Source: an uncultured Actinomycetes bacterium (GTDB lineage: Bacteria > Actinomycetota > Actinomycetes > Mycobacteriales > Jatrophihabitantaceae). From it: a stretch of DNA of 64,000 nt. The translations under genes and the position numbers were made by a program. The DNA lies in contig CAVTEA010000016.1 in assembly GCA_963733615.1 (NCBI GenBank), positions 10,186-74,185 of the forward strand, read 5' to 3'. The stretch's first letter is position 1. Each line of letters begins with the position of its first letter. The notes beneath the pieces were generated by a model. That model was given only the letters and a program-made list of their open reading frames with translations, was not told the origin of the DNA and searched no databases. Shown piece after piece: positions 19,719-62,285 of this stretch.

Positions 19719-20056
19719 CAATCAGCTCTTGAAGGTTCGGTGTCTCGCCGCGCCGGGTGAGGTCGCGCTGACGCCGAGTCGGATGGCAGATGCGTCCGAA
19801 GGTCGGACGCCTGCCTCCGATTCGGCGCAATCGATCCACCCGGACTCGTCCACGCACGAACCCAACACATACCTGGACACTCATGCTGAGACGTCGAGGG
19901 AGCCGTCGACTAGACATCTCGGCATCACACGAAGGCACAACCCGTCACCCGCAAGGCATCCGCGTTCAGGTCGGCGCTACCGCGATAGTGGGTCCGCTCG
20001 CGAAGAACTCCGATTGCAGCCTTCCCCTGCTCACCCGCAGGGCGTGTCAGATCGGG

Positions 20057-21762
20057 TGTGTAAGTGACGTGGACTGACTCTGAGTTCTAGCGACTCGGAA
20101 AGGGACCACGCGATGACTGACACTGAGATCGTGCCCCGTAAGCGTGATCGTGAGCCGGCGGATCGACGGCCGCTGGTCGACGCTGCGCTGGCCGACGAGC
20201 TGCTGGCGCGGGCGCAGACCGATGGGTGTCGAGCTGCTCGGCCCGGACGGGCTACTGAGCCAGGTGACCAAGTCGGTGCTCGAGCGGGCGCTGGCCGAGG
20301 AGATGACCGAGCACCTGGGCTATGACAAGCACGACCCGGCCGGGCGCGGGTCGGGCAACAGCCGCAACGGCGTCACCGGCAAGCGGCTGTTGACCGAGAT
20401 CGGCGGCATCGACCTAGAGGTGCCCCGCGACCGCGCCGGCAGCTTCAGCCCGCAGATCGTGCGCCAGGGCCAGACCCGCCTGGACGGGTTCAACGACCGC
20501 ATCATCGCCTTGTATGCGCGCGGATTGACCACCCGCGACATCCGGGCGCATCTGCGCGAGATGTATGACGTGGACGTCTCGCCGGACCTGATCAGCCGGG
20601 TGACCGATGCGGTGCTCGAGGAGCTGCAGGACTGGCAGGCGCGTCCGCTGGATCGGGTCTATCCGGTGGTGTTCATCGACGCGCTGATGGTCAAGATCCG
20701 CGACGGTGTTGTCGCGAACCGGCCGGTGTATCTGGCGATCGGGATCGACTGCGACGGCGCGAAGAACGTGCTCGGGCTGTGGGTCGGGCCGAGCACCGGA
20801 GAGCCGAGCAAGTTCTGGCTCACCGTGCTCTCGGAGCTCAAGAGCCGCGGCGTGGCTGACGTGTGCATCGTGTGCTGCGACGGGCTGACCGGCCTGCCCG
20901 ACGCCATCGGGGTGGTCTGGCCGCAAGCGGTCGTGCAGCTGCGCGTCGTGCATCTGATCCGGGCTTGGCTGCGGTATGCCTCGAAGAAGGACTGGGGCGC
21001 GCTGACCAAGGATCTGCGGCTGATCTATACCGCCGTCGACGAGCAGGCCGCAGAAGCCGCGCTCGACACCTTCGAGCAGCGCTGGGCCCAGCGCTACCCG
21101 ACAATCGTGAACCTCTGGCGCAGCCACTGGGTCGAGTTCGTCCCGTTCCTGGCGTTCCCCCCTGAGGTGCGTCGCGTGGTTTATACGACGGATGAAAGTG
21201 TCAACAGTGCCGGCGTCCCAGATGGTCTTGTGCCTTGTGGTCCGCGCCCACCGCCGCTGCCGGGTCCTGCGGCCCGCAGCCGCGGTCAAGGTGGAGCCCC
21301 CGGCGAAGCGACACCCACGGATCCGCGCGCAGCGCAACCGGGCAGGTCGCAGGGGCGGCCAAGTACTAACACGGGCTCGCGGCCCATCGAACAAGAACGG
21401 CCTGCCCACCCTGCTTCACTCCCGGTGTCCCTGTCCCGGACGGTCGCACCGTATGCCGACACAGCAACACCCACCAGGGGCGAGAGGCCGACGGAACCGG
21501 CGGCACCGACACCTTCATACCGGTTACGAATCTGATCGAGTCGATGAACGCCCGGCTGCGCAAGGTAACCCGCAACCGCGGGCAGTTCCCCACCGAGCAG
21601 GCCGCGCTGAAAGTGCTCTACCTCGCCGTGCGCAACCTCGATGAGTACCGCGGTCCGACGGTCGGGACAAGAAGCTCGGGCTGGAAACAAGCACTCCAAG
21701 CGTTCACGATCTACTTCGAGGGACGCATCCCCACACCATGACCGCCACGATCACTTACACAG
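20057..21762 (+). mobile_element. IS256-family insertion sequence (copy 1); the transposase is frameshifted near its 5' end and interrupted by a ~335-bp insert
   Basis: Terminal inverted repeats are TGTGTAAGTGACGTGG (about 20057) and CCACGATCACTTACACAG (about 21745-21762). Transposase pieces are ORF 20113.. (MTDTEIVPRK...), ORF 20144..21535 (GLLSQVTKSVLERALAEEMTEHLGYDKHD...VVYTT) and ORF 21544..21741 (NARLRKVTRNRGQFPTEQAALKVLYLA). Confidence 0.85.
21191..21525. mobile_element. MITE-like non-autonomous insert (~335 bp) with imperfect ~24-bp terminal inverted repeats, inside the IS256 transposase gene
   Basis: It splits the conserved IS256 motif VVYTT|NLIESMNARLRK. The left end is GATGAAAGTGTCAACAGTGCCGGCG. 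The reverse complement of the right end is GTATGAAGGTGTCGGTGCCGCCG. There is no credible ORF inside. Confidence 0.55.
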
Positions 21763-21892
21763 ACGGTCAGTTGTGTCCAAGCCCGTGGTGTTTGATCTTC
21801 GCTCGCTGCTGAGCGTGGCGTCGAGATGTGAGACGGCCACCGCGTGATCCTTCACGAGATCCGACCAAGGTTCCCGAGCGAGGAGCAACGCG

Positions 21893-42006: not shown

Positions 42007-43427
42007 TCAGACGCGTGCCAGCTGGTTCGGCGATCGGCGCAGGTAGACGAACCAGGTCAGCGCGAAGCACGCGGCATAGAATGCGATGAACGCGACGTAG
42101 GCGGCGTTGCCGTTGTGGTAGGTGAGGAACGACTGCCGGAACGCGATGTTGACGAGCACGCCGCCGAAGGCGCCGATCGCGCCGGCGATGCCGATGAGCG
42201 CGTTGGCGAGTCGGCGGGCTTCGCGCTCGGCCGTCGCGGCATCGGCGCCGGCCTCGACCTGCCGGTGGGCCTTGCTGCGGAAGATCGCCGGGATCATCTT
42301 GTACGTCGAGCCGTTGCCGATGCCGCTGAACACGAACAGCGCGATGAAGCCGACGAAGAACAGCACCAGCGACTTCTGCGTCGAGGCGATGAGCACGACA
42401 GCGGCGGACCCTGCCATGAGGACGAAGTTCCAGAACGTCGTCCGCGCGCCACCGATTCGGTCGGCCAGCCAGCCTCCCGCCGGCCGGATCAGCGAACCGA
42501 CCAGCGGGCCGAGGAAGGTCAGGTAGGCGACCTTGACGGGGTCGACGACGTGCTTGCCGCTCGCGTAGAAGTGGGCCGGGAACTGGTTCTGCAGCACCTG
42601 CCCGAACGCGAAGCCGAAGCCGATGAACGAGCCGAACGTGCCGATGTAGAGGAACGACATGACCCAGGTGTGCGGGTCGCGGCACACGTCGCGCATCGCC
42701 CGCTTGTCGTTGCTGACGTGGCGATGTTGTCCATGAACAGCGCGGCGCCGAGTGCGGCGACGACGATCAGCGGGATGTAGACGCCCAGCATCACCCGGGG
42801 GTGGCCCTTGCCGGCAGTGGCCAGCACCGCCAGGCCGACAGCTGCACCGCGGCGACGCCGAGGTTGCCGCCGCCGGCGTTGAGGCCCAGGGCCGCACCCT
42901 TGAGTCGCTGCGGGTAGAAGGAGTTGATGTTCGCCATGGACGAGGCGAAGTTGCCGCCGCCGACGCCGGCCAGCGCCGCGAGCGAACGAGCAGCGTGCCG
43001 AAGGAGACGCCCGGCTTCGAGGGCAACCGCGACGGCGATGCCGGGACGAGCAGCAGCAGCGCGCTGACGATCGTCCAGTTGCGGCCGCCGAACTTCGCGA
43101 CGGCGAACGTGTACGGCAGCCGCAGCGACGGATCCCAGCGCAGTCGGCAGCGTGGTCAGCAGGAACTTCTCCGCCGCGGCCTGCTTGGGGTCGGCGCTGA
43201 AGCCGTAGGCGGGCGTCAGGAACAGGACGAACACCGACCACAGGCTCCAGACCGAGAAGCCGATGTGCTCGGAGAAGATGCTGGACACGCAGGTTGCGGC
43301 GCGCGATTTCGGCGCCGGCGCGTTCCCAGAATGCCGGACTCTCCGGGTCCCAGATGTCGAGCCACCGGCCGCGCACGACGGGAGCCGGCGCGGCGCGCGT
43401 CGCCTGGGGGCTAACGGTCTCGGTCAT
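42007..43427 (-). pseudogene. narK: Nitrate/nitrite MFS transporter, with multiple frameshifts
   Basis: The protein is spread over three minus-strand frames (ORFs 42519..43427, 42791..43288, 42007..43026). Pieces include RWLDIWDPESPAFWERAG, SIFSEHIGFSVWSLWSVFVLFL, GGGNFASSMANINSFYPQRLKGAALGLNAGGGNLG and FLYIGTFGSFIGFGFAFGQVLQ...GNGSTYKMIPAIF. Confidence 0.8.
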
Positions 43428-43551
43428 GAGGCGGCCTCGCTGTTCGGGCCGCCGGGGTGCTCGGTCATGAGGCGGCCTCGCTGTTCGGGCCGCCGGGGTG
43501 CTCGGTCATGAGGCGGCCTCGCTGTTCGGGCCGCCGGGGTGCTCGGTCATG
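43420..43551 (-). repeat. 41-bp tandem repeat, 3 full copies plus a 9-10 nt partial copy, overlapping the narK start codon
   Basis: The unit on the minus strand is ATGACCGAGCACCCCGGCGGCCCGAACAGCGAGGCCGCCTC. Units start at 43542, 43501 and 43460, and the narK ATG is at 43427... The three copies are identical. Confidence 0.95.
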
Positions 43552-43770
43552 ACAGGTCCTTCCGCTCGGTCGTGGGCGACGCTAGGAACGGCACGTTTCG
43601 GCTGCGGGCGGGTTTCCGAGGCATCCGTGCAACGAATCCCGCACATGTCCTCGCAACTCGTGTGAGGACGCCCGGACCGCACACCCATCGGCGTGGTCGG
43701 AGAGGGCTCCGTAGCGAGGCGTTAACGTCGCTGACTCGGGCCCGGAACCATCGGTGCGGACGGTTGAGCG

Positions 43771-50242: not shown

Positions 50243-51447
50243 GGCGATCGGAGCCGCTGGCCGGCTACACCGTCGGCATCACCGCGGCCCGGCGCCGCGA
50301 GGAGCTCGGGGCGGCGCTGGAGCGGCGCGGCGCCAAGGTCGTGTACGCGCCCGGCGATCCGCATCGTCCCGCTCGCCGACGACACCGACTGCTGGCCGCC
50401 ACCGAGCGCTGCCTGGCCGCGCCGCTCGACATCGTCGTCGCCACCACCGGGATCGGCTTCCGCGGCTGGATGGAGGCGGCCGACGCCTGGGGCCTGGCCG
50501 ACGCCGCTGTTCGAGCGCCTCGACGCGGCCACGCTGCTGGCCCGCGGGCCCAAGGCGCGCGGGGCCGTGCGGGCGGCCGGGCTGCGCGAGGCGTGGTCGC
50601 CGGAGTCCGAGTCGTGCAGCGAGGTGCTCGAGCACCTGCTGCGCCAGCCGACCTGACCGGCCGGCGCGTCGCGGTGCAACTGCACGGCGAGCCGCTGCCC
50701 GATCTCGTCGCAATCCCTCGCGGCGGCCGGCGCCGACGTGATCGAGGTGCCCGTCTACCGCTGGGTGCCGCCGGATGACATGACGCCGCTGCGCCGGCTG
50801 GTCGGCGCCGTCGCCACCCGGCAGGTCGACGCGTCGCGTTCACCAGCGCCCCGGCCGCGGCGAGCTTCCTGCACGCGGCCGACGACGAGCTCGGGCACGC
50901 CGTCGACGCGCTGCGCTCGGGCGTCGCTGGCCTGCTGCGTCGGGCCGGTGACGGCCGCGCCGCTGCAGCGCGCCGACGTCCCGGTCATCGCAGCCGGACC
51001 GGCCGCGCCTCGGGGCGCTGGTCCGCGAGATCGTCGAGCAGGTGCCGGCCCGCTGCGGACTGGTGCTGCCGGCGGCCGGCCACACGCTCGGCGTGCGCGG
51101 CCACGCGGTCGTGGTCGACGGCACGATGGTGCCGCTCGGCGCGACGGCAATGTCGCTGCTGCGCGATGCTCGCCCACCATCCCGGACAGGTCGTGTCGCG
51201 GGCGCAACTGCTCGCCGCGCTGCCGAACGACGGGCAGGACGAGCACGCCGTCGAGGTCGCCATCGGGCGGCTGCGCACCGCGCTCGGCGACCCGCGCATC
51301 GTGCAGACAGTCGTCAAGCGCGGCTATCGGCTGGCCTATGAGCCCGAGCGCGCTGGATCCTGCACCACCGACGAGGTGAACGTCGAAGCGGCGCCGGCGT
51401 ACGCCGTGTCCGCACGGCATACCTGGATTTGCCGAGCGACCAGCTGA
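50243..51447 (+). pseudogene. Uroporphyrinogen-III synthase (HemD-like) fused to a C-terminal OmpR-type winged-helix domain, frameshifted
   Basis: Pieces are LAGYTVGITAARRREELGAALERRGAKVVYAP, LDIVVATTGIGFRGWMEAADAWGL, IEVPVYRWVPPDD and the C-terminal QVVSRAQLLAALPNDGQDEHAVEVAIGRLRTALGDPRIVQTVVKRGYRLA, read in at least 4 frames. Confidence 0.7.
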
Positions 51448-51497
51448 GCGGCCGGCCGAGCGACCAGATCAGCAGGCGACGGGAGTATCCGACCAAC

Positions 51498-53128
51498 GGC
51501 TCTGGCGCACTTTCGGTGGTTGGTCGGGCGTGTCGGCGGCCGGCGCGGGATCTCTTGTTGATCACGATCGTGCGTGATCGATGCGGATGTGGTGGTCGGG
51601 ACGGTCTTTTCGGGGTTGACGGCGTTGACGATCTACGGGATCGAGGACGCTGGCGAGGTGATTGTGGTGCACGCTCGCACCCGTGGCGGCGCGGTGAAAT
51701 GCCCGAGCTGCGGCACCCTCACCGGGCACGTCCACGCGTTCGGTGAGCGGGTGCCGGCGGACGTGCCTGTCGACGGACGGCGGGTGCTGGTCCGTGTTCG
51801 GGTGCGACGGATGCGCTGCCGGGCCGAGGACTGCGCGAGACAGACGTTCCGCGAACAGGTTCCTGGTGTGCTGGAGCGCTATCAACGCCGGACAGTGCGG
51901 CTGAATGCGCAACTGCGCAGCGTGGTGCGGGAGCTGGCCGGCCGCGCCGCGGCCCGGCTACTGCCGGTGATGGGCATCGTCGCGGGCAAGGACACGGCGG
52001 TGCGTGCACTGCTGGGCATCGCGCTACCTGAGCGTCCGGTGCCGCGGGTGTTGGGGATCGATGACTTCGCGCTGCGGCGCAGCCGCCAGTACGCCACGGT
52101 GGTGATCGACGCCGAAACCGGCGAGCGGATCGATGTGCTGCCCGGTCGCGGCGCCGGCGTGGTCAGCGACTGGCTACGTTCCCATCCCGGCGTCGAGGTC
52201 GTGTGCCGCGACGGGTCGAGCACCTATGCCCAAGCCGTCCGCGACGCGTTACCGAGCGCGGTGCAGGTGGCCGACCGCTGGCACCTATGGCACGGTCTCG
52301 CCGAGGCTGCGCTGAAGGAAGTCGCGGCCCACTCAGCCTGCTGGGCCGGAGCAACCGGCGTCCAGAACGGGCCACTGGCCCGCACAACGTCCGAACGCTG
52401 GCATCAGGTGCACGACCTGCTCAAGCAAGGTCACGGGCTGCTGGAGTGCTCGCGGCGGCTGAATCTGTCGCTGAACACTGTCAAGCGGTATGCCCGAGCC
52501 AGCGAACCGACTCGGATGCAGCGCGTGCCGAAATACCGCCCCACGTTGGTCGATCCCTACCGCGATCACCTCCGACAGCGGCGCGCTGAGCAGCCTGGCG
52601 TGCCCGTGACGCAGCTGCTAGCCGAGATCCGTCAGCTTGGTTACCCGGGCAGCGCGAACCTGCTGACCCGCTACCTCAACCAGGGCCGCGCCGAGGACAA
52701 GCAACAACATCTCTCACCCCGGCGCGCGGCTCGCCTGCTGCTGACCAGACCGGCCAATCTCACCGACCGGCAACGCGAGCGTCTCCACCAAATCGCCGAC
52801 GCGTGTCCCGAAATCGCCGCTGTCCGCAACCTTGTCGCCGCGTTCGCCGCGTTGCTCACACCCGAGCAGGACAATCCAGCCAGGCTGCAGGCGTGGATGG
52901 ACGCGGCACGCAGCAGCGACCTGCCGCACGTGCATTCCTTCGTCCGCGGGCTCACCCAGGACATCGAGGCCGTCAACGCCGCGCTGAGAACGCCGCACCA
53001 CAACGGCAGAACCGAGGGCGTCAACACCAGAACGAAAATGATCAAACGACAGATGTACGGCCGCGCCGGCTTCGAGCTTCTTCGACACCGAATCCTTCTC
53101 GGCTAACCACCGAAAGTGCGCCAGAGCC
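51498..53128 (+). mobile_element. ISL3-family insertion sequence, copy A
   Basis: The terminal IRs are GGCTCTGGCGCACTTTCGGTGGTT (51498) and AACCACCGAAAGTGCGCCAGAGCC (ending at 53128). They enclose an intact 510-aa transposase ORF. Confidence 0.9.
51574..53106 (+). CDS. ISL3-family transposase (copy A)
   Basis: Intact 510-aa ORF with N-terminal zinc-ribbon CPSCG...H, DDFALRRSRQYATVVIDAETGERIDVL, VADRWHLWHGL and the C-terminal HHNGRTEGVNTRTKMIKRQMYGRAGFELLRHRILL, typical of ISL3. Confidence 0.9.
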   Translation: MIDADVVVGTVFSGLTALTIYGIEDAGEVIVVHARTRGGAVKCPSCGTLTGHVHAFGERVPADVPVDGRRVLVRVRVRRMRCRAEDCARQTFREQVPGVLERYQRRTVRLNAQLRSVVRELAGRAAARLLPVMGIVAGKDTAVRALLGIALPERPVPRVLGIDDFALRRSRQYATVVIDAETGERIDVLPGRGAGVVSDWLRSHPGVEVVCRDGSSTYAQAVRDALPSAVQVADRWHLWHGLAEAALKEVAAHSACWAGATGVQNGPLARTTSERWHQVHDLLKQGHGLLECSRRLNLSLNTVKRYARASEPTRMQRVPKYRPTLVDPYRDHLRQRRAEQPGVPVTQLLAEIRQLGYPGSANLLTRYLNQGRAEDKQQHLSPRRAARLLLTRPANLTDRQRERLHQIADACPEIAAVRNLVAAFAALLTPEQDNPARLQAWMDAARSSDLPHVHSFVRGLTQDIEAVNAALRTPHHNGRTEGVNTRTKMIKRQMYGRAGFELLRHRILLG

Positions 53129-53164
53129 GCTAACTTGACACGCTCTCGACTGGGCACCCGGGCG

Positions 53165-53637
53165 CGGGCACTGGCTACTGGCCCGCCGCTCGATCAGCGA
53201 CCCAACCGAGATCGCCTACTACATCTGCTACGGGCCCCGCCGATCCAGTCTGGTGGACCTGGCCTGGATCGCCGGGTCCCGCTGGCGGGTCGAAGAGTGC
53301 TTCCAACAGGCCAAGAACGAGGCCGGTCTGGACCACTACCAAGTGCGCAGCTGGCGGGCCTGGTATGCCCACATCACCCTGTCCATGCTCGCCCTGGCCT
53401 GGCTTAGCGGCACCAAAGCCCTTGCCGCAAAAGGGGAATCGGCGTCCACGACCAAGACATGATCAACTACACGTTACCGGAGATCCGCCGCCTGCTCGTG
53501 CACCTCATCCTGCGACACACCCACCGACCCGACCACGTCTGGTCCTGGTCACGCTGGCGACGACGACGCCAACACCAAGCCCGCGCCAGCCACTACCGAC
53601 GACGCGGCTACCCACCCGAAGTGCCGTTGCAGTATTA
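53165..53637 (+). pseudogene. IS701-family (IS4-like DDE) transposase, C-terminal fragment with a frameshift near 53455, truncated by ISL3 copy A
   Basis: Pieces are RRSISDPTEIAYYICYGPRRSSLVDLAWIAGSRWRVEECFQQAKNEAGLDHYQVRSWRAWYAHITLSMLALAWL and, in another frame, INYTLPEIRRLLVHLI...WSWSRWRRRRQHQARASHYRRRG. Confidence 0.7.
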
Positions 53638-53646
53638 GAGCTCGTT

Positions 53647-53930
53647 TCAGAATGAGCGGTTGAGTTGTTGGTGGCAGATCAGGGCGCAGGCGAGTTGGAG
53701 TAGGCCGAGGTGGATGTCGGCGCGTCGTTCGTATCGGGGGCGGAGTCGTTTGAACTGATGGAGCCAGGCGAAGCCGCGTTCGACAACCCAGCGGACCTTG
53801 CCCAGTCCAGAACCGTGCGCGGTACCGCGGCGGGCGATGCGTGGCCGGATGCCGCGTGTGTCGAGCAGTCGGCGGTACTTGTCGAAGTCGTAGCCACGGT
53901 CGGCGAACAGCTCACGGGGCATCTCAGCCA
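53647..53930 (-). pseudogene. IS5-family (IS427-like) transposase, C-terminal fragment
   Basis: ORF 53647..54015 contains ADRGYDFDKYRRLLDTRGIRPRIARRGTAHGSGLGKVRWVVERGFAWLHQFKRLRPRYERRADIHLGLLQLACALICHQQL. This is the conserved tail of IS5-family DDE transposases, and the N-terminal part is absent. Confidence 0.75.
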
Positions 53931-54041
53931 CGTCTCGGTCGGGTGCGTAGCGAACTGGTTGAACTCGGCGATCTTTGTGGAAGCCTGGCACCATCGCTGG
54001 AATGTGCTGCGTCATTCGACGCCTCTCATCGCGTCATATGT

Positions 54042-54593
54042 ATGAGTCCAGGGGAAGGCCAAAGGGTGGAATGGGACGTGAGTTTTGTTGAGTTCGTCCG
54101 TGATCAGGCGGACGAACTGTATCGGGCGTCGTACCTTTTGGTCGGTGAGCCGTCCGGGGCAGCCGATCTGGTCCAGGAAACGCTGACTCGGCTGTATCCC
54201 AAGTGGGATCGGGTGTTGGGGGCCGATTCTGCCCTCGCGTACGTCCGCAAGGCGGTCGTGAATCAGTATTTGTCCGGGGCGCGACGATTGCGATCGAGGG
54301 AAGTTCTGCTGGCCGATGTGCCGGACACGGGCGTGGATGACGAGGTCGCGTCACGCTTCATGGATCAAGCCGTGCTTGATCGTCCGCTGGCCACCCTATC
54401 GCCGAAGCAGCGAACGGCGGTGGTACTTCGCTACTTCCACGACCTGTCCGATCACGAGTCAGCAGTTGTGATGGGCTGTTCTGTGCCGACGTTCCGTAGC
54501 CATCTTCGACGCGGCTTGGCGGCGCTTAGGAGGCAACTCACGACGAGCGAGACCCCGCCCGTAGACGGTCGTAATCTGAGGAGCCCACGATGA
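54042..54593 (+). CDS. ECF-type RNA polymerase sigma factor (actinobacterial SigE/SigM-like subgroup)
   Basis: The sigma-2 region is FVEFVRDQADELYRASYLLVGEPSGAADLVQETLTRLYPKWDRV. The sigma-4 HTH is LSPKQRTAVVLRYFHDLSDHESAVVMGCSVPTFRSHLRRGLAALRRQL. ATG at 54042 (alternative GTG at 54066). The region is visibly lower in G+C than the host. Confidence 0.85.
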   Translation: MSPGEGQRVEWDVSFVEFVRDQADELYRASYLLVGEPSGAADLVQETLTRLYPKWDRVLGADSALAYVRKAVVNQYLSGARRLRSREVLLADVPDTGVDDEVASRFMDQAVLDRPLATLSPKQRTAVVLRYFHDLSDHESAVVMGCSVPTFRSHLRRGLAALRRQLTTSETPPVDGRNLRSPR

Positions 54594-55246
54594 GCACCGA
54601 GTTCGAGCAACACCTGCGTGACCGACTGCGCCGCGCTGCCGAGACAGCGCCAAGCCAACCGGGACTACTTCGCCAAATTGAAGCCGGGACCGTCAGCGAC
54701 GCGTTGCCGGGGCTCCCGCATCGAACACGACTCCGCAGATGGCTGCCTCTGCTGGCTAGCGCGGCGATCGCCCTCACCGCCGCAACTGCCATCGCGCTTG
54801 CATCGGTGGCAAATCACCGCTCCGCGCCACCGGGGGTGGGAGCGTCGTTGTCATGCGGGGTGCTGCCGCAGGCGTGTCGGCTTTCGGCGCCACCGGCCGG
54901 CCACGCGAGTGATCAAGAGGCGCACCCATTACCGAAGGGCGCTACCTTGCTCACACGCAGTCAAGCCGAGGCACATGCTGTCGGAGCGAACCACATTACC
55001 TCGCGCACGTTCAGCGCCCTGATGACTGGTGCGCAAGCCGACGCTCGGTTCGAAGTCGGCCGCGCAAGCAGCTATGACGAGACACGGCCGGTCTGGGTTG
55101 TCACCGTCCACGCGTCTGTCGGGACCGACGGTGGACCAGGGGCACGTCCTACGAGAAAGGACGTGTATTCCATAGTTCTTGACGCTCACACCGGACGCAT
55201 AACAGACGCGTGCACGGGGTGCGCATGGCTAACTGCTAGCTTGTGA
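54590..55246 (+). CDS. Membrane-anchored sigma-factor partner (putative anti-sigma-like protein) with a conserved extracytoplasmic C-terminal domain
   Basis: ATGA-coupled to the sigma gene. The N-terminus EQHLRDRLRRAAE is followed by a single TM (WLPLLASAAIALTAATAIALASV). The C-terminal block RPVWVVTVHASVGTDGGP...KDVYSIVLDAHTGRITDACTGCAWLT is shared with 55386..56000. Confidence 0.65.
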   Translation: MSTEFEQHLRDRLRRAAETAPSQPGLLRQIEAGTVSDALPGLPHRTRLRRWLPLLASAAIALTAATAIALASVANHRSAPPGVGASLSCGVLPQACRLSAPPAGHASDQEAHPLPKGATLLTRSQAEAHAVGANHITSRTFSALMTGAQADARFEVGRASSYDETRPVWVVTVHASVGTDGGPGARPTRKDVYSIVLDAHTGRITDACTGCAWLTASL

Positions 55247-55385
55247 CGGCCGTCCGATCTCTCAGCACGTTGTATCGTGTCCCGCGTCTACAACACAGCA
55301 TCACTTTACGGCTGACGCTTCAGGGGCCTCGACAAATACTAATAGCGAATGGTCCAGCCGTTTGAAGTCTGCTCGGGCTGTTCGT

Positions 55386-56000
55386 TCACGAGCCCTGCGT
55401 TAGCCAGGCGCACCCGATGCACATGTCGGTCACTCTGCCACTGGCAGCATCGATCACGACCGAGAATGCATCCTTGGCTTTACCTGCAGCCGCTGGCCCG
55501 CCGTCAGTAGCCACGTGCGCGTGCACGGCGACGACCCAGACCGGTCGGCTCGAGTCATAAGACAGCGGACGCCCGATGCTGAATTTCGCGTCCGCTTGCA
55601 CACCGGACATCATTGCGCTGTATGTTGGAGACGTAATCGTCGAAGAACCAATTGCGACCGCCTCTGCACTGGCGCGGGCCATGAGTGCCGCGCCTTGTGG
55701 AATTGGGGCGGTTTCGGTCTCGCTCCCGAAGTCCTGCTTGTACGCGGCCGAATTGCAAATCTGGTGAGCTTGCATGCACGCCTTCAACGCAGGATCGTTT
55801 AGGCCTGTGTAGCCGGGTGGCACTGATGGCGAGTTCACACCTGAAGGTATCGGTCCCTCAGTCGGCGCGGCGCCAGGCGGTGGAGTGGTGTCGGTGCCGT
55901 GTGCCGAGGTCTGGCTGAGCAAGACAGCCGTGATGACTACTGCTACCGCACCGACAGTGATCTGCAGCGGTCGCTTGCGAAGTGCCTCAGCTATCTTCAT
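55386..56000 (-). CDS. Membrane-anchored paralog of the sigma partner's C-terminal domain (alternative GTG start at 56021)
   Basis: Single TM (LQITVGAVAVVITAVLL) and a Pro-rich linker. The C-terminal block is RPVWVVAVHAHVATDGGP...KDAFSVVIDAASGRVTDMCIGCAWLT. The ATG at 56000 shares one nt with the TGA of the upstream gene (TGATG). Confidence 0.65.
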   Translation of the reverse strand: MKIAEALRKRPLQITVGAVAVVITAVLLSQTSAHGTDTTPPPGAAPTEGPIPSGVNSPSVPPGYTGLNDPALKACMQAHQICNSAAYKQDFGSETETAPIPQGAALMARASAEAVAIGSSTITSPTYSAMMSGVQADAKFSIGRPLSYDSSRPVWVVAVHAHVATDGGPAAAGKAKDAFSVVIDAASGRVTDMCIGCAWLTQGS

Positions 56001-56752
56001 CAGTTCTTCCTCGCCTTCCACTCCGTCATGTACGGAGTCCAGCTGAAGCAGTACCCGTTAGGCCAGTTTGGTGTAACGCCATATTGGTTGCACGGGTAAT
56101 CGACCCAATCGACATGGTAGCCAAAAGGACCCCAAGCGCCCGATGTTGTTTCCGTCTGCAGCGATGTCCAGTCGCCTTGCGACGTGTGGGTCACTGGAGT
56201 CGGTTGATTCTGATTGTCCTCAAGGCCTACCTGAAATTGGAACCCTTGCCACCCGTTATTGGTTGGTTGGTTCGTTGACATTCCGATGTAATTTGCATCA
56301 AGGAATACGTCCCAATGATTGGTGCTTGATGCACGCTCAGTCGTGTAGGTGTGATGCGCAAGATCGATGCTGGCGTTCCCGAAGGTGTGGAGATGTTCGT
56401 TCCCAGCGGCATCAAAGTCCGCCCAGAACCATGTGTAGCCGGTATTGGTTCCCGTCACGTCTACGCCGTTTCGGAGGCCGAACTCTACCCACTGTGCGAG
56501 GTCTGCACGGGTGTAGAACCATTGCTCGGCATTCACGTGATAGGTGTTGACGTACGGAGCGCTGATATTCAGCGCGATATTATCGAATTCACTGTAACCG
56601 CCGGCGTATCGGTCGCTATGGGACCCGTCCAGGCATTCCGTCGCGCTGGGATTACCTCCGTGCGCGCAATCAGCTGACGCCGCCGGCACCCCAACGATCG
56701 CGGTGCCTATCAACGCCACACCACTTGCAATTAAGGCTGCGGTGAATCGCAC
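56000..56752 (-). CDS. Secreted hypothetical protein (250 aa), low-GC, Trp/Asn/Thr-rich, family unknown
   Basis: The signal peptide is MRFTAALIASGVALIGTAIVGVPAASA. The mature part has paired Cys near both ends (DCAHGG..ATEC; YPCNQ..GYC). My hand count on 200 nt gives about 52% G+C. It is translationally coupled to the downstream gene. Confidence 0.7.
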   Translation of the reverse strand: MRFTAALIASGVALIGTAIVGVPAASADCAHGGNPSATECLDGSHSDRYAGGYSEFDNIALNISAPYVNTYHVNAEQWFYTRADLAQWVEFGLRNGVDVTGTNTGYTWFWADFDAAGNEHLHTFGNASIDLAHHTYTTERASSTNHWDVFLDANYIGMSTNQPTNNGWQGFQFQVGLEDNQNQPTPVTHTSQGDWTSLQTETTSGAWGPFGYHVDWVDYPCNQYGVTPNWPNGYCFSWTPYMTEWKARKN

Positions 56753-56836
56753 CCTCCCACCCCCCTTTACCGTTGCGACGAGCTGCTAGAGGTTGTCCCG
56801 CTCCCCGTTGAACTTCGGTGGCAGTCCTCATGATCG

Positions 56837-57490
56837 TCAGGCGGCGATCACGTTGTCATCTTGACGCACGGCACTGACAGTTTGCGCGGCGACATGCTCA
56901 TCGAGTGCGACGCGGAGCGCGGGCAGGTGGAGGTGGCCGTTGACGCGGCGGAACTGCTTGCTGGCTTCGATCATCCCGGCGGCGCACCAGCGCAGCGCCA
57001 TGTTGCCGTTCTGCCAGTTCTTCACGTTCGTGGAGTGGTCGCGGGCGATCGAGATCATCGACTCGATGCTGTTCGTGCTGCGCAGCGTTCGGGCCAACGT
57101 GGGTGACACACCCAGCCGCAGCACGGTCAGCGTCTCGGCCAGTCCTTCGCGCAGTGACGCGGCGGCGCCGGGATGGGTGCGTTCGAGTTCCTTCGCGAGC
57201 GCTTCGAGCTGTGCCTCGGCCACAATCGCGGACTCGGCGTGGTAGGCCTGCCGCATCCGCTTGGTTACGGTCGAGGCGAGATGGTCGGGCAGCTTGTCGG
57301 CCAAGTTTCTGATCTTGTGAAGTTGGCAGCGGCCGATCACCGGATGATCGAACACTCGCACGACTGCGGCCCGCAGCGCTTTGCCGCCGTCGATGCCGAC
57401 GAAGATCGGCCGGGTGGTGCCCAGGCCGCGGTCGCGCAGCCCGGTCAGCAGATCGGTGACCACGCTGGTGTTCTCGGTCGGGGGTGTCAA
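56837..57490 (-). pseudogene. IS256-family transposase, C-terminal fragment, truncated by ISL3 copy B
   Basis: Contains RPIFVGIDGGKALRAAVVRVFDHPVIGRCQLHKIRNLADKLP...RSTNSIESMISIARDHSTNVKNWQNGNMALRWCAAGM, the distal half of mutator-type transposases. The ORF begins at the ISL3 boundary. Confidence 0.75.
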
Positions 57491-57496
57491 CTGGCT

Positions 57497-59141
57497 GGCT
57501 CTGGCTCACTTTCGGTGGTGACCGGTGTTGGGGCTAGGCGAGCAGGATGCGGTGGCGTAGGAGGTCGAAGCTGGCACGTCCGTACATCTGTCGTTTCAGC
57601 ATTTTCGTGCGGGTGTTGACGCCCTCGGTTCTGCCGTTGTGGTGCGGCATAGTCAGCGCCGCGACGACAGCATCGCGGTCTTGCTCGATCCCGCGGACGA
57701 AGGAGTGCACGTGCGGTAGGTCGATGCTGCGCGCCGCGTGTGTCCACTCCTGCAGCCTGGCTGGATTGCTCTGGCCGGGCGTGAGCAGGGCCGCGAACGC
57801 GTCGACAAGACCGCGCAGAGCGGTGATCTCGGGACACGCACCGGCGAGCTGATCGAGACGTTCGCGTTGCCGGTCGGTGAGATTGGCCGGCCTGGTCAGC
57901 AGTAGCCGTGCAGCCCGCCGGGGCGAGAGGTGCTGCTGCTTGTCCTCAGCTCGGCCCTGGTTGAGATAGCGGGTCAGCAGGTTCGCGCTGCCCTGGTAGC
58001 CGAGCTCGCGGATCTCGCGAAGCAGCTGGGTCACTGGCACACCAGGCTGTTCAGCGCGTCGAGACCGAAGGTGATCACGGTAGGGATCCACGAGCGTGGG
58101 GCGGTATTTCGGCACGCGCTGCAGGCGGGTCGGTTCGCTGGCGCGGGCGTAGCGTTTGACGGTGTTCAGGGACAGGTTCAACCGCCGGGAGCACTCGAGC
58201 AGTCCGAGACCTTGCTTGAGCAGGCCATGCACCTGATGCCAGCGTTCGGTCGTGGTGCGGGCCAGCGGCCCGTCCTGGACCCCGGTTGCTCCGGCCCAGC
58301 AGGCTGAGTGGGCCGCGACCTCTTTGGCCGCTGCTTCGGCCAAGCCGTGCCACAGATGCCACCGGTCCGCGACCTGCACTACAGCGGGAACGGCGTCGCG
58401 TACGGCTTGGGCGTAGGTGCTCGACCCGTCGCGGCACACGATTTCGACTCCAGGATGGCTACGCAGCCAGTCGCTGACAACACCGGCGCCGCGGTCGGGC
58501 AGCACATCGATCCGAACACCGGTTTCGGCGTCGATCAACACCGTGGCGTACTGGCGGCTGCGCCGCAACGCGAAGTCGTCGATCCCCAACACTCGCGGCA
58601 CCGGCCGGTCGGGCAGCACGATGCCTAGCAGAGCGCGCAGGGCGGTGTCCTTGCCTGCGGCGATTCCCATCACGGGTAGCAGCCGAGCCGACGCGCGACC
58701 GGCAAGCTCCCTGACGACACCGCGCAGTTGCTCGCTCAATCGCACCGTGCGCCGCTGATAACGCTCGAGCACACCAGGGACTTGCTCGCGGAACGTCTGC
58801 CGCACGCAGCCCTGCGCGCGGCAGCGCATTCGTCGTACTCGGACACGCACCAGCACGCGTCGCCCATCGATCGGGACGTCTGCTGGCACCCGCTCATGGA
58901 AGGCATGCACGCGCCCCGTTAGGGTCCCGCAGGTCGGGCATCGCACCGCACCGCCACGGGTGCAAGCGCGAACCACGATCACCTCGCCGGCGTCCTCGAT
59001 CTCATCGATCGTCAACGCCGCCAACCCCGAAAAGACCGTCCCGATCAGGACTTCCGCATCGATCATGGCCGATCTTGATCAAGCCGACCTCCCGCGCCGG
59101 CCGACGACACGCCCGGTCACCACCGAAAGTGAGCCAGAGCC
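57497..59141 (-). mobile_element. ISL3-family insertion sequence, copy B (inverted relative to copy A)
   Basis: The terminal IRs are GGCTCTGGCTCACTTTCGGTGGTG (57497) and CACCACCGAAAGTGAGCCAGAGCC (ending at 59141). They differ from copy A at one or two positions. Confidence 0.9.
57534..59066 (-). CDS. ISL3-family transposase (copy B)
   Basis: Intact 510-aa ORF collinear with copy A. There are scattered substitutions throughout (roughly nine in ten residues identical by eye). Confidence 0.9.
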   Translation of the reverse strand: MIDAEVLIGTVFSGLAALTIDEIEDAGEVIVVRACTRGGAVRCPTCGTLTGRVHAFHERVPADVPIDGRRVLVRVRVRRMRCRAQGCVRQTFREQVPGVLERYQRRTVRLSEQLRGVVRELAGRASARLLPVMGIAAGKDTALRALLGIVLPDRPVPRVLGIDDFALRRSRQYATVLIDAETGVRIDVLPDRGAGVVSDWLRSHPGVEIVCRDGSSTYAQAVRDAVPAVVQVADRWHLWHGLAEAAAKEVAAHSACWAGATGVQDGPLARTTTERWHQVHGLLKQGLGLLECSRRLNLSLNTVKRYARASEPTRLQRVPKYRPTLVDPYRDHLRSRRAEQPGVPVTQLLREIRELGYQGSANLLTRYLNQGRAEDKQQHLSPRRAARLLLTRPANLTDRQRERLDQLAGACPEITALRGLVDAFAALLTPGQSNPARLQEWTHAARSIDLPHVHSFVRGIEQDRDAVVAALTMPHHNGRTEGVNTRTKMLKRQMYGRASFDLLRHRILLA

Positions 59142-59181
59142 CGACCAACGGTGTACTTGGCCGGTGCCAGCGGCCCCAGGC

Positions 59182-59625
59182 TCACCGTTTGGTGTGTTCC
59201 ACGAGCACGGCGGCCGCCCGGTCAAGCAGTTGGCTCAACACGGCGCGCTCCTTGGCCGTGAACGCCCGCCCGAACTGACGCTCCAGTTCTACGACCTCTG
59301 CGTAGGCCTCGGTCAACAGCGTCGTGCCGTCCCTCGTCAGAGTGACGATCTGAACCTTCGCATGCACGGATGACGGTTCGCGGCAGACCAGATCCTTTGC
59401 TTCCAGGACCTTGAGAACGCTGGCCATCGTCTGCTGGGTTACGCCGCAGGCTCGGGCAAGCTGAGATCCCGATTGGCCCGGTGCGCGAGACAGAGTGAGC
59501 AGCACGGCGTACTGGGTCATCGTCAAGCCGCGCCGGCGCAGTACGGACTCATGGTGCGCCGTCAGAGCCTGTTCGGCTGAGCGGATGCGAGTGCACAGGT
59601 ACTCCTCGCTGGTGGGTACCGTCAT
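59182..59625 (-). CDS. MarR-family transcriptional regulator
   Basis: ATG at 59625 within track ORF 59182..59907. The winged-helix core is LTMTQYAVLLTLSRAPGQSGSQLARACGVTQQTMASVLKVLEAKDLVCRE...VTLTRDG. Confidence 0.85.
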   Translation of the reverse strand: MTVPTSEEYLCTRIRSAEQALTAHHESVLRRRGLTMTQYAVLLTLSRAPGQSGSQLARACGVTQQTMASVLKVLEAKDLVCREPSSVHAKVQIVTLTRDGTTLLTEAYAEVVELERQFGRAFTAKERAVLSQLLDRAAAVLVEHTKR

Positions 59626-59650
59626 CGCTGACCTTTCACAGAGCACGTTG

Positions 59651-59696
59651 TTGACTTCGATAGCTGTCATAGTTACCTTCACTAACACAGGTAACT
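59651..59696 (+). promoter_or_regulatory. Divergent MarR/oxidoreductase control region: candidate promoter TTGACT-17-TACCTT and inverted repeat AGTTACC-12 nt-GGTAACT
   Basis: Read directly from the sequence. TTGACT is at 59651-59656. The IR arms are at 59671-59677 and 59690-59696. Both lie in the 93-bp gap between the divergent genes. Confidence 0.4.
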
Positions 59697-59718
59697 GTAA
59701 CTCGACAGGAGACTGGCT

Positions 59719-60669
59719 ATGAAGGCAATCATCTTGGACGACCGTGACAATCTCCAGGTAGGGGAGGTGGCAGATCCGGAACCAGGACCAGGAGAGGTGT
59801 CCATCGCTGTCGCCTACGCAGGAGTCCAATGGGGCGATGTCCTCGTCCGACAAGGGCATTTTCCGACTCCGCGGCCCTACGTTCCCGGTTTCGAGGCTGC
59901 CGGGCACATCGTCGGTGTCGGCGCTGGGATCGACCCCGCTCGGCTCGGTGAACCCGTTACCGCGCTGACGAGCGGCGGCGCTTTCGCCGAACGCGTCACG
60001 GTGCCCGCCAGCCTGGCGCTGGCGTTAGACGGCATTGACGTCCGTACTGGGGCGGCGTTCGGTTGGGTGACGCCGACCGCGTACGACCTGATCAACACGA
60101 TCGGCGCCGTAGACGCTGGTGATCGAGTTCTGATTCACGCGGCTGCCGGTGGCGTCGGCAGCCGTGCGGTGCAGTTCGCCCGCGCGGCCGGAGCCGCCGA
60201 CATCACTGGCGTGGTCGGCACGCCACAGCAGATCGAATACGCCTCCGGGATCGGCTGTACCCGCGTGATCGACAAGGATCAGTACCCCGGAGAACTCTCC
60301 GACTCTCACTTCGACGTGATCCTGGACCCGATCGGCGGGCCGACACGCGCCGCCAACGTGGAGCGTCTCGCGCCGCACGGCCGCCTCGTCGTGTACGGCA
60401 ACATCGCAAGCTGGGACTCCTATGAGGCGTCAGCCAACGACTTGTTGATGAAGGGCCAGTCGCTGCTGACCTACAACAGCAATCTCCTCAGTCAGACCGC
60501 ACCCGACCGGCTCGCGGCAAGCGCACGAGCCGCGCTCGAAGTTGTCAGAACCGGCACCGTCGCGATCCAGGTCACCGCGGAGTACCCGCTCAGCGAAGCA
60601 GCGAAGGCCGTCGACGACCTTGCCGCCGGAGCCACGTTCGGCAAGACCATCCTTCGCGTCGCCGCATGA
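59719..60669 (+). CDS. Zinc-type alcohol dehydrogenase / NADPH:quinone oxidoreductase (MDR superfamily)
   Basis: 316-aa ORF with a GroES-like N-domain (VSIAVAYAGVQWGDVLVRQG) and the Rossmann motif HAAAGGVGSRAVQFARAAGA. Confidence 0.85.
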   Translation: MKAIILDDRDNLQVGEVADPEPGPGEVSIAVAYAGVQWGDVLVRQGHFPTPRPYVPGFEAAGHIVGVGAGIDPARLGEPVTALTSGGAFAERVTVPASLALALDGIDVRTGAAFGWVTPTAYDLINTIGAVDAGDRVLIHAAAGGVGSRAVQFARAAGAADITGVVGTPQQIEYASGIGCTRVIDKDQYPGELSDSHFDVILDPIGGPTRAANVERLAPHGRLVVYGNIASWDSYEASANDLLMKGQSLLTYNSNLLSQTAPDRLAASARAALEVVRTGTVAIQVTAEYPLSEAAKAVDDLAAGATFGKTILRVAA

Positions 60670-60806
60670 CGTGACGTCGATCGCCTACCAGTCAGGACTG
60701 AGATTCGGCGATCGCCGAGAACCGCCGGAGGCATGGCGGTTCTCGGCCCGGCTGTCGGTGCCGGCTGTGATTCAGCGCGCCGCGGAACCGTTCCGGTTGT
60801 GCCGCG

Positions 60807-62285
60807 TCACGACAGGCCGACGGACTCGAGTAGCGGCGTGTCGGCCGCGGTGATTAGCTCGGTCTCGCCGCGACTGTTGACGGTCCGCATGGCGATCACG
60901 GCGGTGGCGAGGAGGAAGACGCTCTCGGCGAGCAACGCGCGGTGGATGCCGGACGTCAGGGCGTGCCTGGAGGAGTCGTGCAGGTGCACGAGGTGGTTCG
61001 TCCGGGCCGTAGCGATGGCGGAGAAGATCGCCAGGCCGAGGGCACCGCCCACCTGCTGCGACGCATTCATGAGTGCGGCGGCCAAGCCGGCCTTGTCGGC
61101 GGGCACTCCGGCGTTGGCGGCCGTCGTCACTGACACGAACAGCGCGCCCAGACCGATGGAGATGACCATCTGCGCGGGAAGAAGATTCTGGGGGTACGAG
61201 CCGTGGACGGGCACCTTCGAGAGCCAGTAGAGCCCGCCGGCGCCCAGCAGGGCACCGACGATGATCAGCGGGCGGGTCCCGACCTTGAGCAGCAGCTGGG
61301 AGCAGATGCCCGCGGAGACGGCGACGCCTGCGGTGAACGGCAGGTACGACGCGCCGGCCTTGATCGGCGAGTAGCCCAGAACGACCTGGACGTAGAGCGT
61401 GATGAAGAAGAACATCGCGATCAGGCCGGCCGCCGCGATGAGCAGCGTGAGGTTGGCCGCCGCCAGGCCGCGGATGCGGAAGGTGGACAACGGCATCAGC
61501 GGGTTGCGGCCGGTCTGCTCCTTGATCAGGAACAGTGCCAGCAGGATCCCGGCGCCGACCAGTTCACCGATCGTCCGGCCCGATCCCCAGCCCTGGTCCG
61601 GTGCCTTGACCAGGCCGTAGACGAGCAGCAGCATGCCGCTGGTGACGAGGACCGTGCCGACCATGTCGAAGTTGGCGAGCGTTGGCCGGCGCTGCTCACC
61701 CGGGATCATTCTGAAGATCGCGACGAGCAGCAGGACGGCGATCGGGGGATTGACGAACAGCACCCAGCGCCAGCCGGGGCCCTCGGTCAGCAGGCCGCCG
61801 AGGAACACGCCGGCGGCCGAGGCGAGCCCGGCGACGCCGCCCCACGCGCCGAGCGCGGTGTGCCGGTCCTTGCCCTCCTTGAAGTAGGTGGTCAGCAGCG
61901 ATAGGGCGGCCGGCAGCATCATCGCGGCACCGAGTCCCTGGACGAGCCGGGCGCCGACGAGGGTGCCGGAGTTCTGTGCCAGGCCGCCGATGAACGACGA
62001 CACCGCGAAGATCGTGGTGCCGGCGACGAGCACGCGGCGCCGGCCCAGCAGGTCCGCGAGCCGGCCTCCGAGCAGCATCAGCCCCCCGTAGGTGAGCAGA
62101 TAGCCGCTGAGCACCCACTGCAGGTTCTGTACCGAGAAGTTCAGGTCCTTGCGGATGTCGGGTAGAGCGATGTTGACGATCGACGCGTCGACGAAGTCGA
62201 GGAATCCGATCGAGCAAAGCAGGGCGAGGGTGAGCTTGCCCCGGCGTGTCGCGAGGAACGACGGGGAAGTGGTGGTCGCGACCAT
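60807..62285 (-). CDS. MFS transporter, DHA2 (EmrB/QacA, 14-TMS) drug:H+ antiporter family
   Basis: 492-aa polytopic ORF. The N-terminal motif is LDFVDASIVNIALPDI, motif A-like GRLADLLGRRRV is present, and there are about 14 hydrophobic segments. Confidence 0.85.
   Translation of the reverse strand: MVATTTSPSFLATRRGKLTLALLCSIGFLDFVDASIVNIALPDIRKDLNFSVQNLQWVLSGYLLTYGGLMLLGGRLADLLGRRRVLVAGTTIFAVSSFIGGLAQNSGTLVGARLVQGLGAAMMLPAALSLLTTYFKEGKDRHTALGAWGGVAGLASAAGVFLGGLLTEGPGWRWVLFVNPPIAVLLLVAIFRMIPGEQRRPTLANFDMVGTVLVTSGMLLLVYGLVKAPDQGWGSGRTIGELVGAGILLALFLIKEQTGRNPLMPLSTFRIRGLAAANLTLLIAAAGLIAMFFFITLYVQVVLGYSPIKAGASYLPFTAGVAVSAGICSQLLLKVGTRPLIIVGALLGAGGLYWLSKVPVHGSYPQNLLPAQMVISIGLGALFVSVTTAANAGVPADKAGLAAALMNASQQVGGALGLAIFSAIATARTNHLVHLHDSSRHALTSGIHRALLAESVFLLATAVIAMRTVNSRGETELITAADTPLLESVGLS

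Follow-up and report, generated by a model that had tools for sequence, protein, structure and literature searches.

A 7.6-kb unit bounded by two diverged, inverted ISL3-family insertion sequences in an uncultured actinobacterium is probably a composite transposon inserted at a preferred target site

We analysed a 64-kb stretch of DNA (the window, to whose full length all coordinates refer) from the metagenome-assembled genome (MAG) of an uncultured actinobacterium, recovered from one sample. Positions 51498-59141 of this window are occupied by a 7,644-bp unit in which two insertion sequences (IS) of the ISL3 family, copy A and copy B, lie in inverted orientation relative to each other with 4.4 kb of other DNA in between. 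This unit is probably a composite (compound) transposon, in which copy A, the enclosed cargo and copy B moved together as one 7.6-kb piece. The two copies are structurally complete, an identical octamer abuts both outer ends of the unit, related ISL3 copies generate duplications of the same length within a conserved target motif, and the empty site obtained by removing the unit fits that motif better than any other position in the window. One-piece transposition is supported as the most economical model for this structure, which was studied at one locus.

Copy A extends over 51498-53128 on the plus strand (1631 bp), with its left terminal inverted repeat (IRL) at 51498-51519, a transposase gene at 51574-53106 (510 aa) and its right terminal inverted repeat (IRR) at 53107-53128. 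Copy B extends over 57497-59141 on the minus strand (1645 bp), with the IRR at 57497-57518, the transposase gene at 57534-59066 (510 aa) and the IRL at 59120-59141. The 22-bp inverted repeat (IR), GGCTCTGGC[G/T]CACTTTCGGTGG, has four exact occurrences in the window, at 51498-51519 (+), 53107-53128 (-), 57497-57518 (+) and 59120-59141 (-), where about 0.01 would be expected. Inside each copy the repeats are perfect, and between the copies they differ at one of the 22 positions (position 10, G in A and T in B). Comparison of copy A with the reverse complement of copy B gave 83% DNA identity, distributed evenly over the full length and with no mosaic block, and the corresponding transposases, TnpA and TnpB, are 87% identical over 510 aa. 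Under the usual naming thresholds A and B would thus count as two different IS, each with an intact, full-length and putatively functional transposase open reading frame.

By the conventions of ISfinder, members of the ISL3 family are 1.3-2.3 kb long, contain a single open reading frame, end in IRs starting from GG and generate an 8-bp target duplication. Both transposases matched the Pfam families DDE_Tnp_ISL3 (PF01610) and Zn_ribbon_ISL3 (PF14690), the zinc ribbon being N-terminal, and scored 352 (copy A) and 340 bits against the NCBIfam model NF033550, whose cutoff is 180. The IR tips of A and B begin GGCTCTGG and hence start with GG as the family requires, so that both copies show the DDE type with zinc ribbon, the length, the single open reading frame and the terminal repeats of ISL3 elements, and the 8-bp duplication is seen in their relatives. 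The closest relatives of copy A are unnamed metagenomic copies, at most 92% identical, and exact look-ups of both transposase proteins returned no record.

The octamer CGACCAAC is flush with the outer IR tip of copy A (51490-51497, plus strand) and again with the outer IR tip of copy B (59142-59149, plus strand), the two occurrences being in direct orientation. The inner flanks, GCTAACTT (53129-53136) and AACTGGCT (57489-57496), match neither each other nor CGACCAAC. The segment is therefore bracketed by a related IS pair with intact outer IRs, and a single duplication of IS-typical length surrounds the whole unit while none surrounds A or B singly, as is characteristic of composite transposons. 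An earlier reading made from the letters of the DNA alone (the sequence-only reading) had described the ISL3 pair and the flush octamers at these same positions, had estimated that the transposases differ at roughly one residue in ten and the terminal IRs at one or two positions, and had observed that the single copies lack matching flanks of their own; all of this agrees with our measurements. Its use of 8 bp as the ISL3 duplication length is borne out by 11 related copies with perfect duplications (see below), and its proposal that the 7.6-kb unit transposed as one piece gains support from these duplications, from the target motif and from the rank of the rebuilt site. Its argument concerning inversion is upheld on logic: an inversion between A and B leaves the outer flanks unchanged, so it cannot make them identical, and we rejected this explanation. 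The same reading had also raised the question of whether CGACCAAC might belong to the IS terminus. It does not, because the closest relatives (85-92% identical) carry other octamers at this place, among them CATCTAAC, AAACGAAC and AGACGGCC. The reverse complement of the duplicated octamer, GTTGGTCG, is found at 51519-51526, inside copy A straight after the IRL, so that reading across the left junction gives CGACCAAC-21 bp-GTTGGTCG; two relatives (L164 and L120) have this subterminal sequence too, which assigns GTTGGTCG to the IS.

To define the insertion habit of this group, relatives of TnpA and TnpB were compiled at about 170 loci from metagenomes and isolate genomes of Actinomycetota. The 22-bp IR is kept across the clade despite transposase identities of only 50-90%, and even the two ends of one element may show G/T variation at IR positions 8 and 10. 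Perfect 8-bp duplications were present in 11 related copies with both flanks recovered; mismatched flank pairs in 2-kb metagenome contigs, which may be repeat-spanning chimeras, were excluded as evidence on duplication. Read towards the IS, the flanks fall into two classes, class I consisting of GGG[A/T]CTGT[C/A] followed by 8 bp and class II of ...ACACC followed by 8 bp. In all cases of perfect duplication a class I flank stands opposite a class II flank, from which the intact target can be read as GGGWCTGTC-N8-GGTGT(A/T)(A/T)C, and throughout the roughly 170 loci nearly all insertions of the clade are in GGGWCTGTC-N8-GGTGT.

In the window, the sequences that border the unit on either side are complementary halves of such a target. 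Outside copy A lies a class I half, GGGAGTATC CGACCAAC, and outside copy B a class II half, CGACCAAC GGTGTACTTGG, each 17-mer having p=8e-6 when scored against every 17-mer of the window; a significant half-site adjoins each of the four ISL3 ends, with p from 8e-6 to 4e-4. The left half-site proper (GGGAGTATC, 51481-51489, plus strand) matches the class I profile GGGWCTGTC, and the right one (GGTGTACTTGG, 59150-59160, plus strand) matches the class II profile and resembles GGTGTAACT and GGTGTTTCCGG of IS256-family IRs; both are host or relic DNA outside the transposon. The insertion point falls in the 82-bp spacer between two convergent genes, the last gene of a nitrate/nitrite cluster and a MarR gene whose stop codon is 32 bp from the right half-site. 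Removal of the unit together with one CGACCAAC yields GGGAGTATC-CGACCAAC-GGTGTAC. When a target profile built from ten independent perfect-duplication targets of the clade was scored at 112,616 window positions, this rebuilt site ranked first with 18.5 bits, the runner-up reaching 10.8. Even for the looser GGNNTRTM-N8-GGTGT the expectation is only 0.07 occurrences per window, and no other site of the GGGWCTGTC-N8-GGTGT type was found elsewhere in it. The complementary half-sites and the top profile score together indicate that the outer flanks are the two halves of one genuine insertion site, and such complementarity is expected of a single transposition in which the left tip of A and the right tip of B served as ends. 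No IS256 gene follows the motif, the MarR gene ending there instead, which points to a solo relic or a mimic of an IS256 end, rather than a resident IS256 element, as the site that was entered.

The existence of a preferred target also bears on how improbable the repeated octamer is. The sequence-only reading had put a chance match at about 1 in 65,000, an estimate that has to be raised 30- to 200-fold because the 8 bp belong to a target motif that is itself semi-conserved. If flanks of the relatives are drawn independently, an 8/8 match has a probability of about 5e-4, in place of the naive figure of 1.5e-5, and among pairs of flanks from different loci 6 of 1804 matched at all eight positions, so that the chance of the match is about 1 in 300 to 2,000. 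Counting both strands, CGACCAAC occurs seven times in the window, where about three occurrences would be expected. One of them, at 43870, was considered as the other edge of a GC-rich island to the left of the unit and rejected, because there it is part of the nitrate reductase gene, in the stretch coding for the conserved motif FPTNRGGLC.

The course of events that would lead to this arrangement begins in other, IS-rich DNA, where A and B would each have inserted separately into GGGWCTGTC-N8-GGTGT sites. These earlier sites would have been IS256-type terminal IRs or mimics of them, abutting the fragments of IS701 and IS256 transposase genes that are now found in the cargo. The transposase of A or that of B would then have synapsed the two outer 22-bp IRs, both of which are IRLs, and moved the whole 7,644-bp unit, probably through a circular intermediate, given that ISL3 is grouped with the copy-out-paste-in families (PMC9333248). 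Integration would have taken place at GGGAGTATC-CGACCAAC-GGTGTAC, the third such site in this history, with duplication of CGACCAAC. The order of these events, the acting transposase and the intermediate are what we infer from the final structure. That one transposase could serve both outer ends is plausible, since the IR is conserved among transposases of 50-90% identity and G/T variation exists within single elements.

Several observations weigh against this model. The mobility of the unit rests on one locus in one metagenome-assembled contig, and neither of the searches suggested by the sequence-only reading lent it support: the 26-mer of the empty site, GGGAGTATCCGACCAACGGTGTACTT, had no match in the metagenome_contigs and genome_contigs collections, and no second copy of the unit or of its cargo was found by protein look-ups, among 5.8 billion proteins or in the plasmid collection, the latter containing only distant ISL3 copies (at most 68%) and relatives of IS701 and IS256. 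When the ADH and MarR proteins of the flank and a 218-aa cargo protein were looked up by exact match, nothing turned up beyond the 96,498-bp source contig and short Logan contigs from the sample that yielded it (ERR11523651). The closest counterpart of the flanking genes (L002), 73% identical in ADH, shares only the MarR-ADH pair, which has kdpE as its left neighbour there, and it is thus uninformative on the insertion site. The duplicated octamer lies in a semi-conserved target, and one relative (L006) has CGACTAAC-GGTGT, which matches it at 7 of 8 positions. When distant ISL3 subfamilies with a TGAACAAAGCC-type target were included in the profile, the rebuilt site ranked third; as mixing subfamilies dilutes the signal, we relied on the clade-restricted profile. 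Finally, GC content (76% in the left flank, compared with 67%) and apparent sequence quality change abruptly at the outer end of copy A (51498), and the junction between the nitrate cluster and copy A is covered by no independent contig.

The change at 51498 concerns the nitrate/nitrite assimilation cluster, which from about 43.8 to 51.49 kb has 74-78% GC, compared with about 67% elsewhere in the window. When third-position GC was plotted by frame, the interval 41.8-51.5 kb showed about 26 frame switches, whereas frames elsewhere are long and stable. This anomaly could stem from a poor long-read consensus in very GC-rich DNA, or the cluster could belong to a foreign island in decay. A chimeric join at the outer end of copy A is made less likely by the exact duplication and by the complementary half-sites. 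On the other side of the unit, the junction between copy B and the MarR gene is reproduced at 100% identity by an independent Logan contig from the same sample (L001, covering 59021-61769 and including the outer 121 bp of B), and the cargo core (53740-56857) is likewise reproduced at 100% identity by another (L005). The left 100 bp of L005, opposite 53643-53739 of the window, drift into another IS5-like copy with 19 mismatches, a case of repeat-induced path switching. Two short repeats were noticed in the left flank: a perfect 41-bp tandem repeat of 3.3 copies at 43419-43552, over the start region of a narK-like transporter gene (minus strand), which is either a real start-region duplication or an assembly artefact, and a 12-bp repeat, GCCGAGCGACCA, of 3.1 copies at 51431-51467, covering the 3' end and the downstream spacer of the last nitrate-cluster gene to the left of the insertion.

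These points have to be weighed with other routes to the same structure. The unit might have been assembled in place, a single ISL3 insertion having made the CGACCAAC duplication, after which a circle carrying A, cargo and B integrated by homologous recombination and the surplus was lost through the 22-30-bp direct repeats of the IR tips, with the outer junctions surviving. Such a route would preserve both outer junctions, the region is rich in IS, and many related ISL3 copies have the mismatched flank combinations that frequent recombination is expected to produce. However, the contigs behind many of these mismatched flanks are 2-kb short-read assemblies, possibly chimeric over the repeat, and the route calls for three events, one of them a precise deletion on very short homology. 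It has left no trace of a plasmid backbone and no hybrid IS, A and B differing uniformly at about 83% identity without a mosaic block, and we regard it as unlikely.

An equally unlikely origin supposes that ISL3 elements independently hit two copies of one IS256-type IR, each supplying the same CGACCAAC, and that the two loci were later joined by genome rearrangement or by chimeric long-read assembly. The recurrence of N8 within the target, the identical octamers in 6 of 1804 cross-locus pairs, the sharp shift of GC content and frame integrity exactly at 51498 and the independent confirmation of the B-side junction only are all in keeping with such an origin. Yet neither outer flank runs into the interior of an IS256 element, the nitrate cluster lying before the unit and the MarR stop codon 32 bp after it, so that two separate solo relics with identical N8 would be needed, and the window contains no other such site. 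Further flank-swapping events would have to be invoked for the different N8 of the inner flanks, and a match at all eight positions still has a probability of only 5e-4 to 3e-3. Pure coincidence, in which unrelated ISL3 insertions happened to have the same 8 bp beside them and nothing was mobilised as a unit, can draw on the seven occurrences of CGACCAAC in the window where about three are expected; against it stand the position-exact match in direct orientation, the complementary half-sites, the top rank of the rebuilt site among targets in the window and the lack of a duplication belonging to A or B alone, and we consider it highly improbable. Transposition of the unit in one piece remains our preferred explanation.

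The inner junctions preserve what seems to be the earlier history of each copy. Between copy A and the first cargo gene fragment is a 17-bp sequence, GAGCGTGTC AAGTTAGC read towards the IS (53129-53145, minus strand; class I, p=1.6e-5), which is the outer half of an IS256-type IR or a mimic, and between the last fragment and copy B is another, GGGGGTGTC AACTGGCT (57480-57496, plus strand; class I, p=4e-4), with no homology to the adjoining IS256 gene. Homology to a full-length IS701 gene of Rhodococcus begins only at 53146, and homology to the IS256 gene of Rhodococcus sp. WAY2 ends at 57479. As homology stops exactly at the edges of the 17-mers, these are discrete relics of earlier targets, and neither the IS701 nor the IS256 gene was cut directly by an ISL3 copy. 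The view of the sequence-only reading that the unit was assembled in another IS-rich context fits these junctions, but its statement that the inner ends truncate the two transposase genes needs correcting. Each ISL3 copy would have entered a site of the preferred type abutting a gene fragment and kept the inner half of its old target when the pair moved.

The cargo (53129-57496) is made up of IS debris, a sigma/putative anti-sigma pair and two predicted secreted proteins. Its left part contains a C-terminal fragment of an IS701-family transposase (53146-53637, plus strand; positions 277-360 of the 363 of profile NF033540), which has a frameshift near 53460 and 78-79% DNA identity to IS701 copies of Rhodococcus plasmids, and a C-terminal fragment of an IS5/IS4-type (DDE_Tnp_1) transposase (53647-54015, minus strand; Pfam PF01609 and PF13586). 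There follow, on the plus strand, a SigE-family extracytoplasmic function (ECF) sigma factor of 183 aa (54042-54593; TIGR02983, 149 bits with a cutoff of 141.6; Pfam Sigma70_r2 and r4_2), whose gene is also called on contig L005, and a 218-aa membrane protein (54590-55246) whose gene overlaps that of the sigma factor by an ATGA start/stop. The 218-aa protein matched no family in Pfam or NCBIfam, and its position and transmembrane segment suggest a putative anti-sigma factor. On the minus strand are encoded a predicted secreted or membrane protein of 204-211 aa (55386-56021), whose C-terminal domain is paralogous to that of the 218-aa protein, and an orphan predicted secreted protein of 250 aa (56000-56752) with no Pfam or NCBIfam match and, among 5.8 billion proteins, no homologue other than itself. 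The C-terminal domain common to the 218-aa and 211-aa neighbours contains cysteines, is 50% identical between them and has no family assignment. The right end of the cargo is a C-terminal fragment of an IS256-family transposase (56837-57479, minus strand; Pfam Transposase_mut, and positions 164-337 of the 338 of profile NF033543).

The nature of the target became apparent from relatives in which its surroundings are preserved. The sequence GGGWCTGTC-N8-GGTGTAAC is the terminal IR of IS256-family elements, which ISL3 copies of this clade enter at IR positions 10-17. In Raineyella antarctica (L087) an ISL3 copy at 9928-11571 interrupts an IS256-type element within its IRL; this element has a Mutator-type transposase beginning 37 bp further on and an intact IRR that reads GGGTCTGTC CAGAAAAC GGTGTAACT. 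At locus L092 an ISL3 copy (9947-11576) lies inside the IRR of an IS256 element, and at L165 one (18-1648) is likewise inserted in an IS256-family IR. In these three and in L120 the motif is located at the tip of an element with an IS256 transposase, and IS256 transposase genes adjoin the class II flanks in L008, L017, L025, L113, L120 and L165. The octamer N8 varies, yet recurs within types of IS256 IR, TCGCTAAC and AGACGGCC being examples. The target also resembles the IR of ISL3 itself, GGCTCTGTC-GCACTTTC-GGTGG, and insertions into other ISL3 IRs in the same register were seen in L020, L029 and L103, a resemblance suggesting that the transposase may pick targets that look like its own end.

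Other arrangements were encountered among these loci. In 19 related copies (L013, L029, L030, L036, L007, L088 and others) a class I 17-mer is present on both sides, which gives effective 39-bp IRs, and four of the 19 have a perfect 8-bp duplication just beyond the 17-mers; such copies may be extended forms that are mobile, or else the shells of IS256 elements that were hit twice and suffered a deletion. Copy A was examined as a symmetric element of this kind with its own outer duplication and rejected, as CAGGCGAC and TCGACTGG do not match and its 17-mers share only 8 of 17 positions. In Micromonospora matsumotoense (L097, 9939-13199) two tandem ISL3 copies lie exactly 8 bp (AAATTAAT) apart and could represent an IS dimer or an adjacent insertion. 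In the chromosome of Amycolatopsis nalaikhensis (L120, 9925-14376) an ISL3 element interrupted by about 2.8 kb and flanked by the duplication CCAAGATC lies inside the IRL of an IS256 element that also holds an IS110-family insertion, producing three nested levels of IS. The window itself has a resident IS256-family element at 20040-21790 with a frameshifted transposase (matches at 20225-21744), whose IRL, GGGCGTGTC AGATCGGG TGTGTAAGTGACGTGG, is an unoccupied site of the type used by the 91%-identical relative of TnpA (L165-L174; duplication AGACGGCC).

A wider interpretation of these loci, which we put forward tentatively and with slightly less than even confidence, is that the clade specialises in other IS. 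It would recognise targets resembling its own terminal repeat (GGnTCTGTC-N8-GGTG) and integrate at positions 10-17 of IS256-family and ISL3 IRs, thereby disabling or piggybacking on other IS, stacking IR modules into the 39-bp extended IRs and seeding composites from diverged pairs. If true, this would be IR-targeting across families that keeps a normal 8-bp duplication, of which, as of any preference of this clade for IS256 or ISL3 IRs, the literature searched held no description.

Composite transposons have been described in general terms (PMC9484755), and the present unit resembles Tn10/IS10 and Tn5/IS50 in its inverted IS pair, in the use of the outer ends as transposon ends, in its single flanking duplication and in a cargo unrelated to transposition. 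It differs from both in that their IS copies are near-identical, whereas the ISL3-family pair described here has 83% DNA and 87% protein identity, and in that the resistance genes of Tn10/Tn5-type cargo are replaced by what is mostly IS debris and a sigma/anti-sigma module. IS10 and IS50 move by cut-and-paste, in contrast to the copy-out-paste-in grouping of ISL3. For Enterococcus faecium, a 2022 paper proposed that an ISL3-family pair flanking host genes around liaSR forms a putative composite that moves as a unit; its authors regarded this direct-repeat ISL3 structure as new for the family and presented no evidence of transposition (PMC9484755). There the ISL3 copies are in direct orientation, while here they are inverted, diverged and accompanied by an 8-bp duplication in a consensus target. 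With the IS204, IS1001, IS1096 and IS1165 group of the ISL3 family the present copies share a single DDE_Tnp_ISL3 transposase bearing an N-terminal zinc ribbon, a length of about 1.6 kb, GG-starting IRs and 8-bp duplications; they differ in the strong preference of this actinobacterial clade for IS256-type IRs and its own IRs as targets. Transposases that direct insertion to terminal IRs or lookalikes are known from the IR-targeting of IS30 and the targeted transposition of IS911 (PMC9333248), with which the present case has in common a target resembling the element's own IR. Here, however, integration takes place inside the IR (positions 10-17) with a normal 8-bp duplication, and the victim usually belongs to the IS256 family.

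As a composite transposon the unit represents an ordinary kind of mobile element, and the marked target preference of its clade is a useful by-product of the analysis. Few natural ISL3-bounded composites with a clean duplication are documented, and this one indicates that two ISL3 copies 13-17% apart can apparently cooperate. For target-specific IS, 4^-8 arithmetic overstates the significance of a duplication, and in the annotation of actinobacterial genomes and MAGs the target rule allows true duplications to be distinguished from conserved flank motifs. The same rule explains the pile-up of the clade's elements in IS-rich islands. Given a cargo with an ECF sigma/putative anti-sigma pair and two predicted secreted proteins, one of them an orphan, the unit could carry a small envelope-signalling module between replicons.

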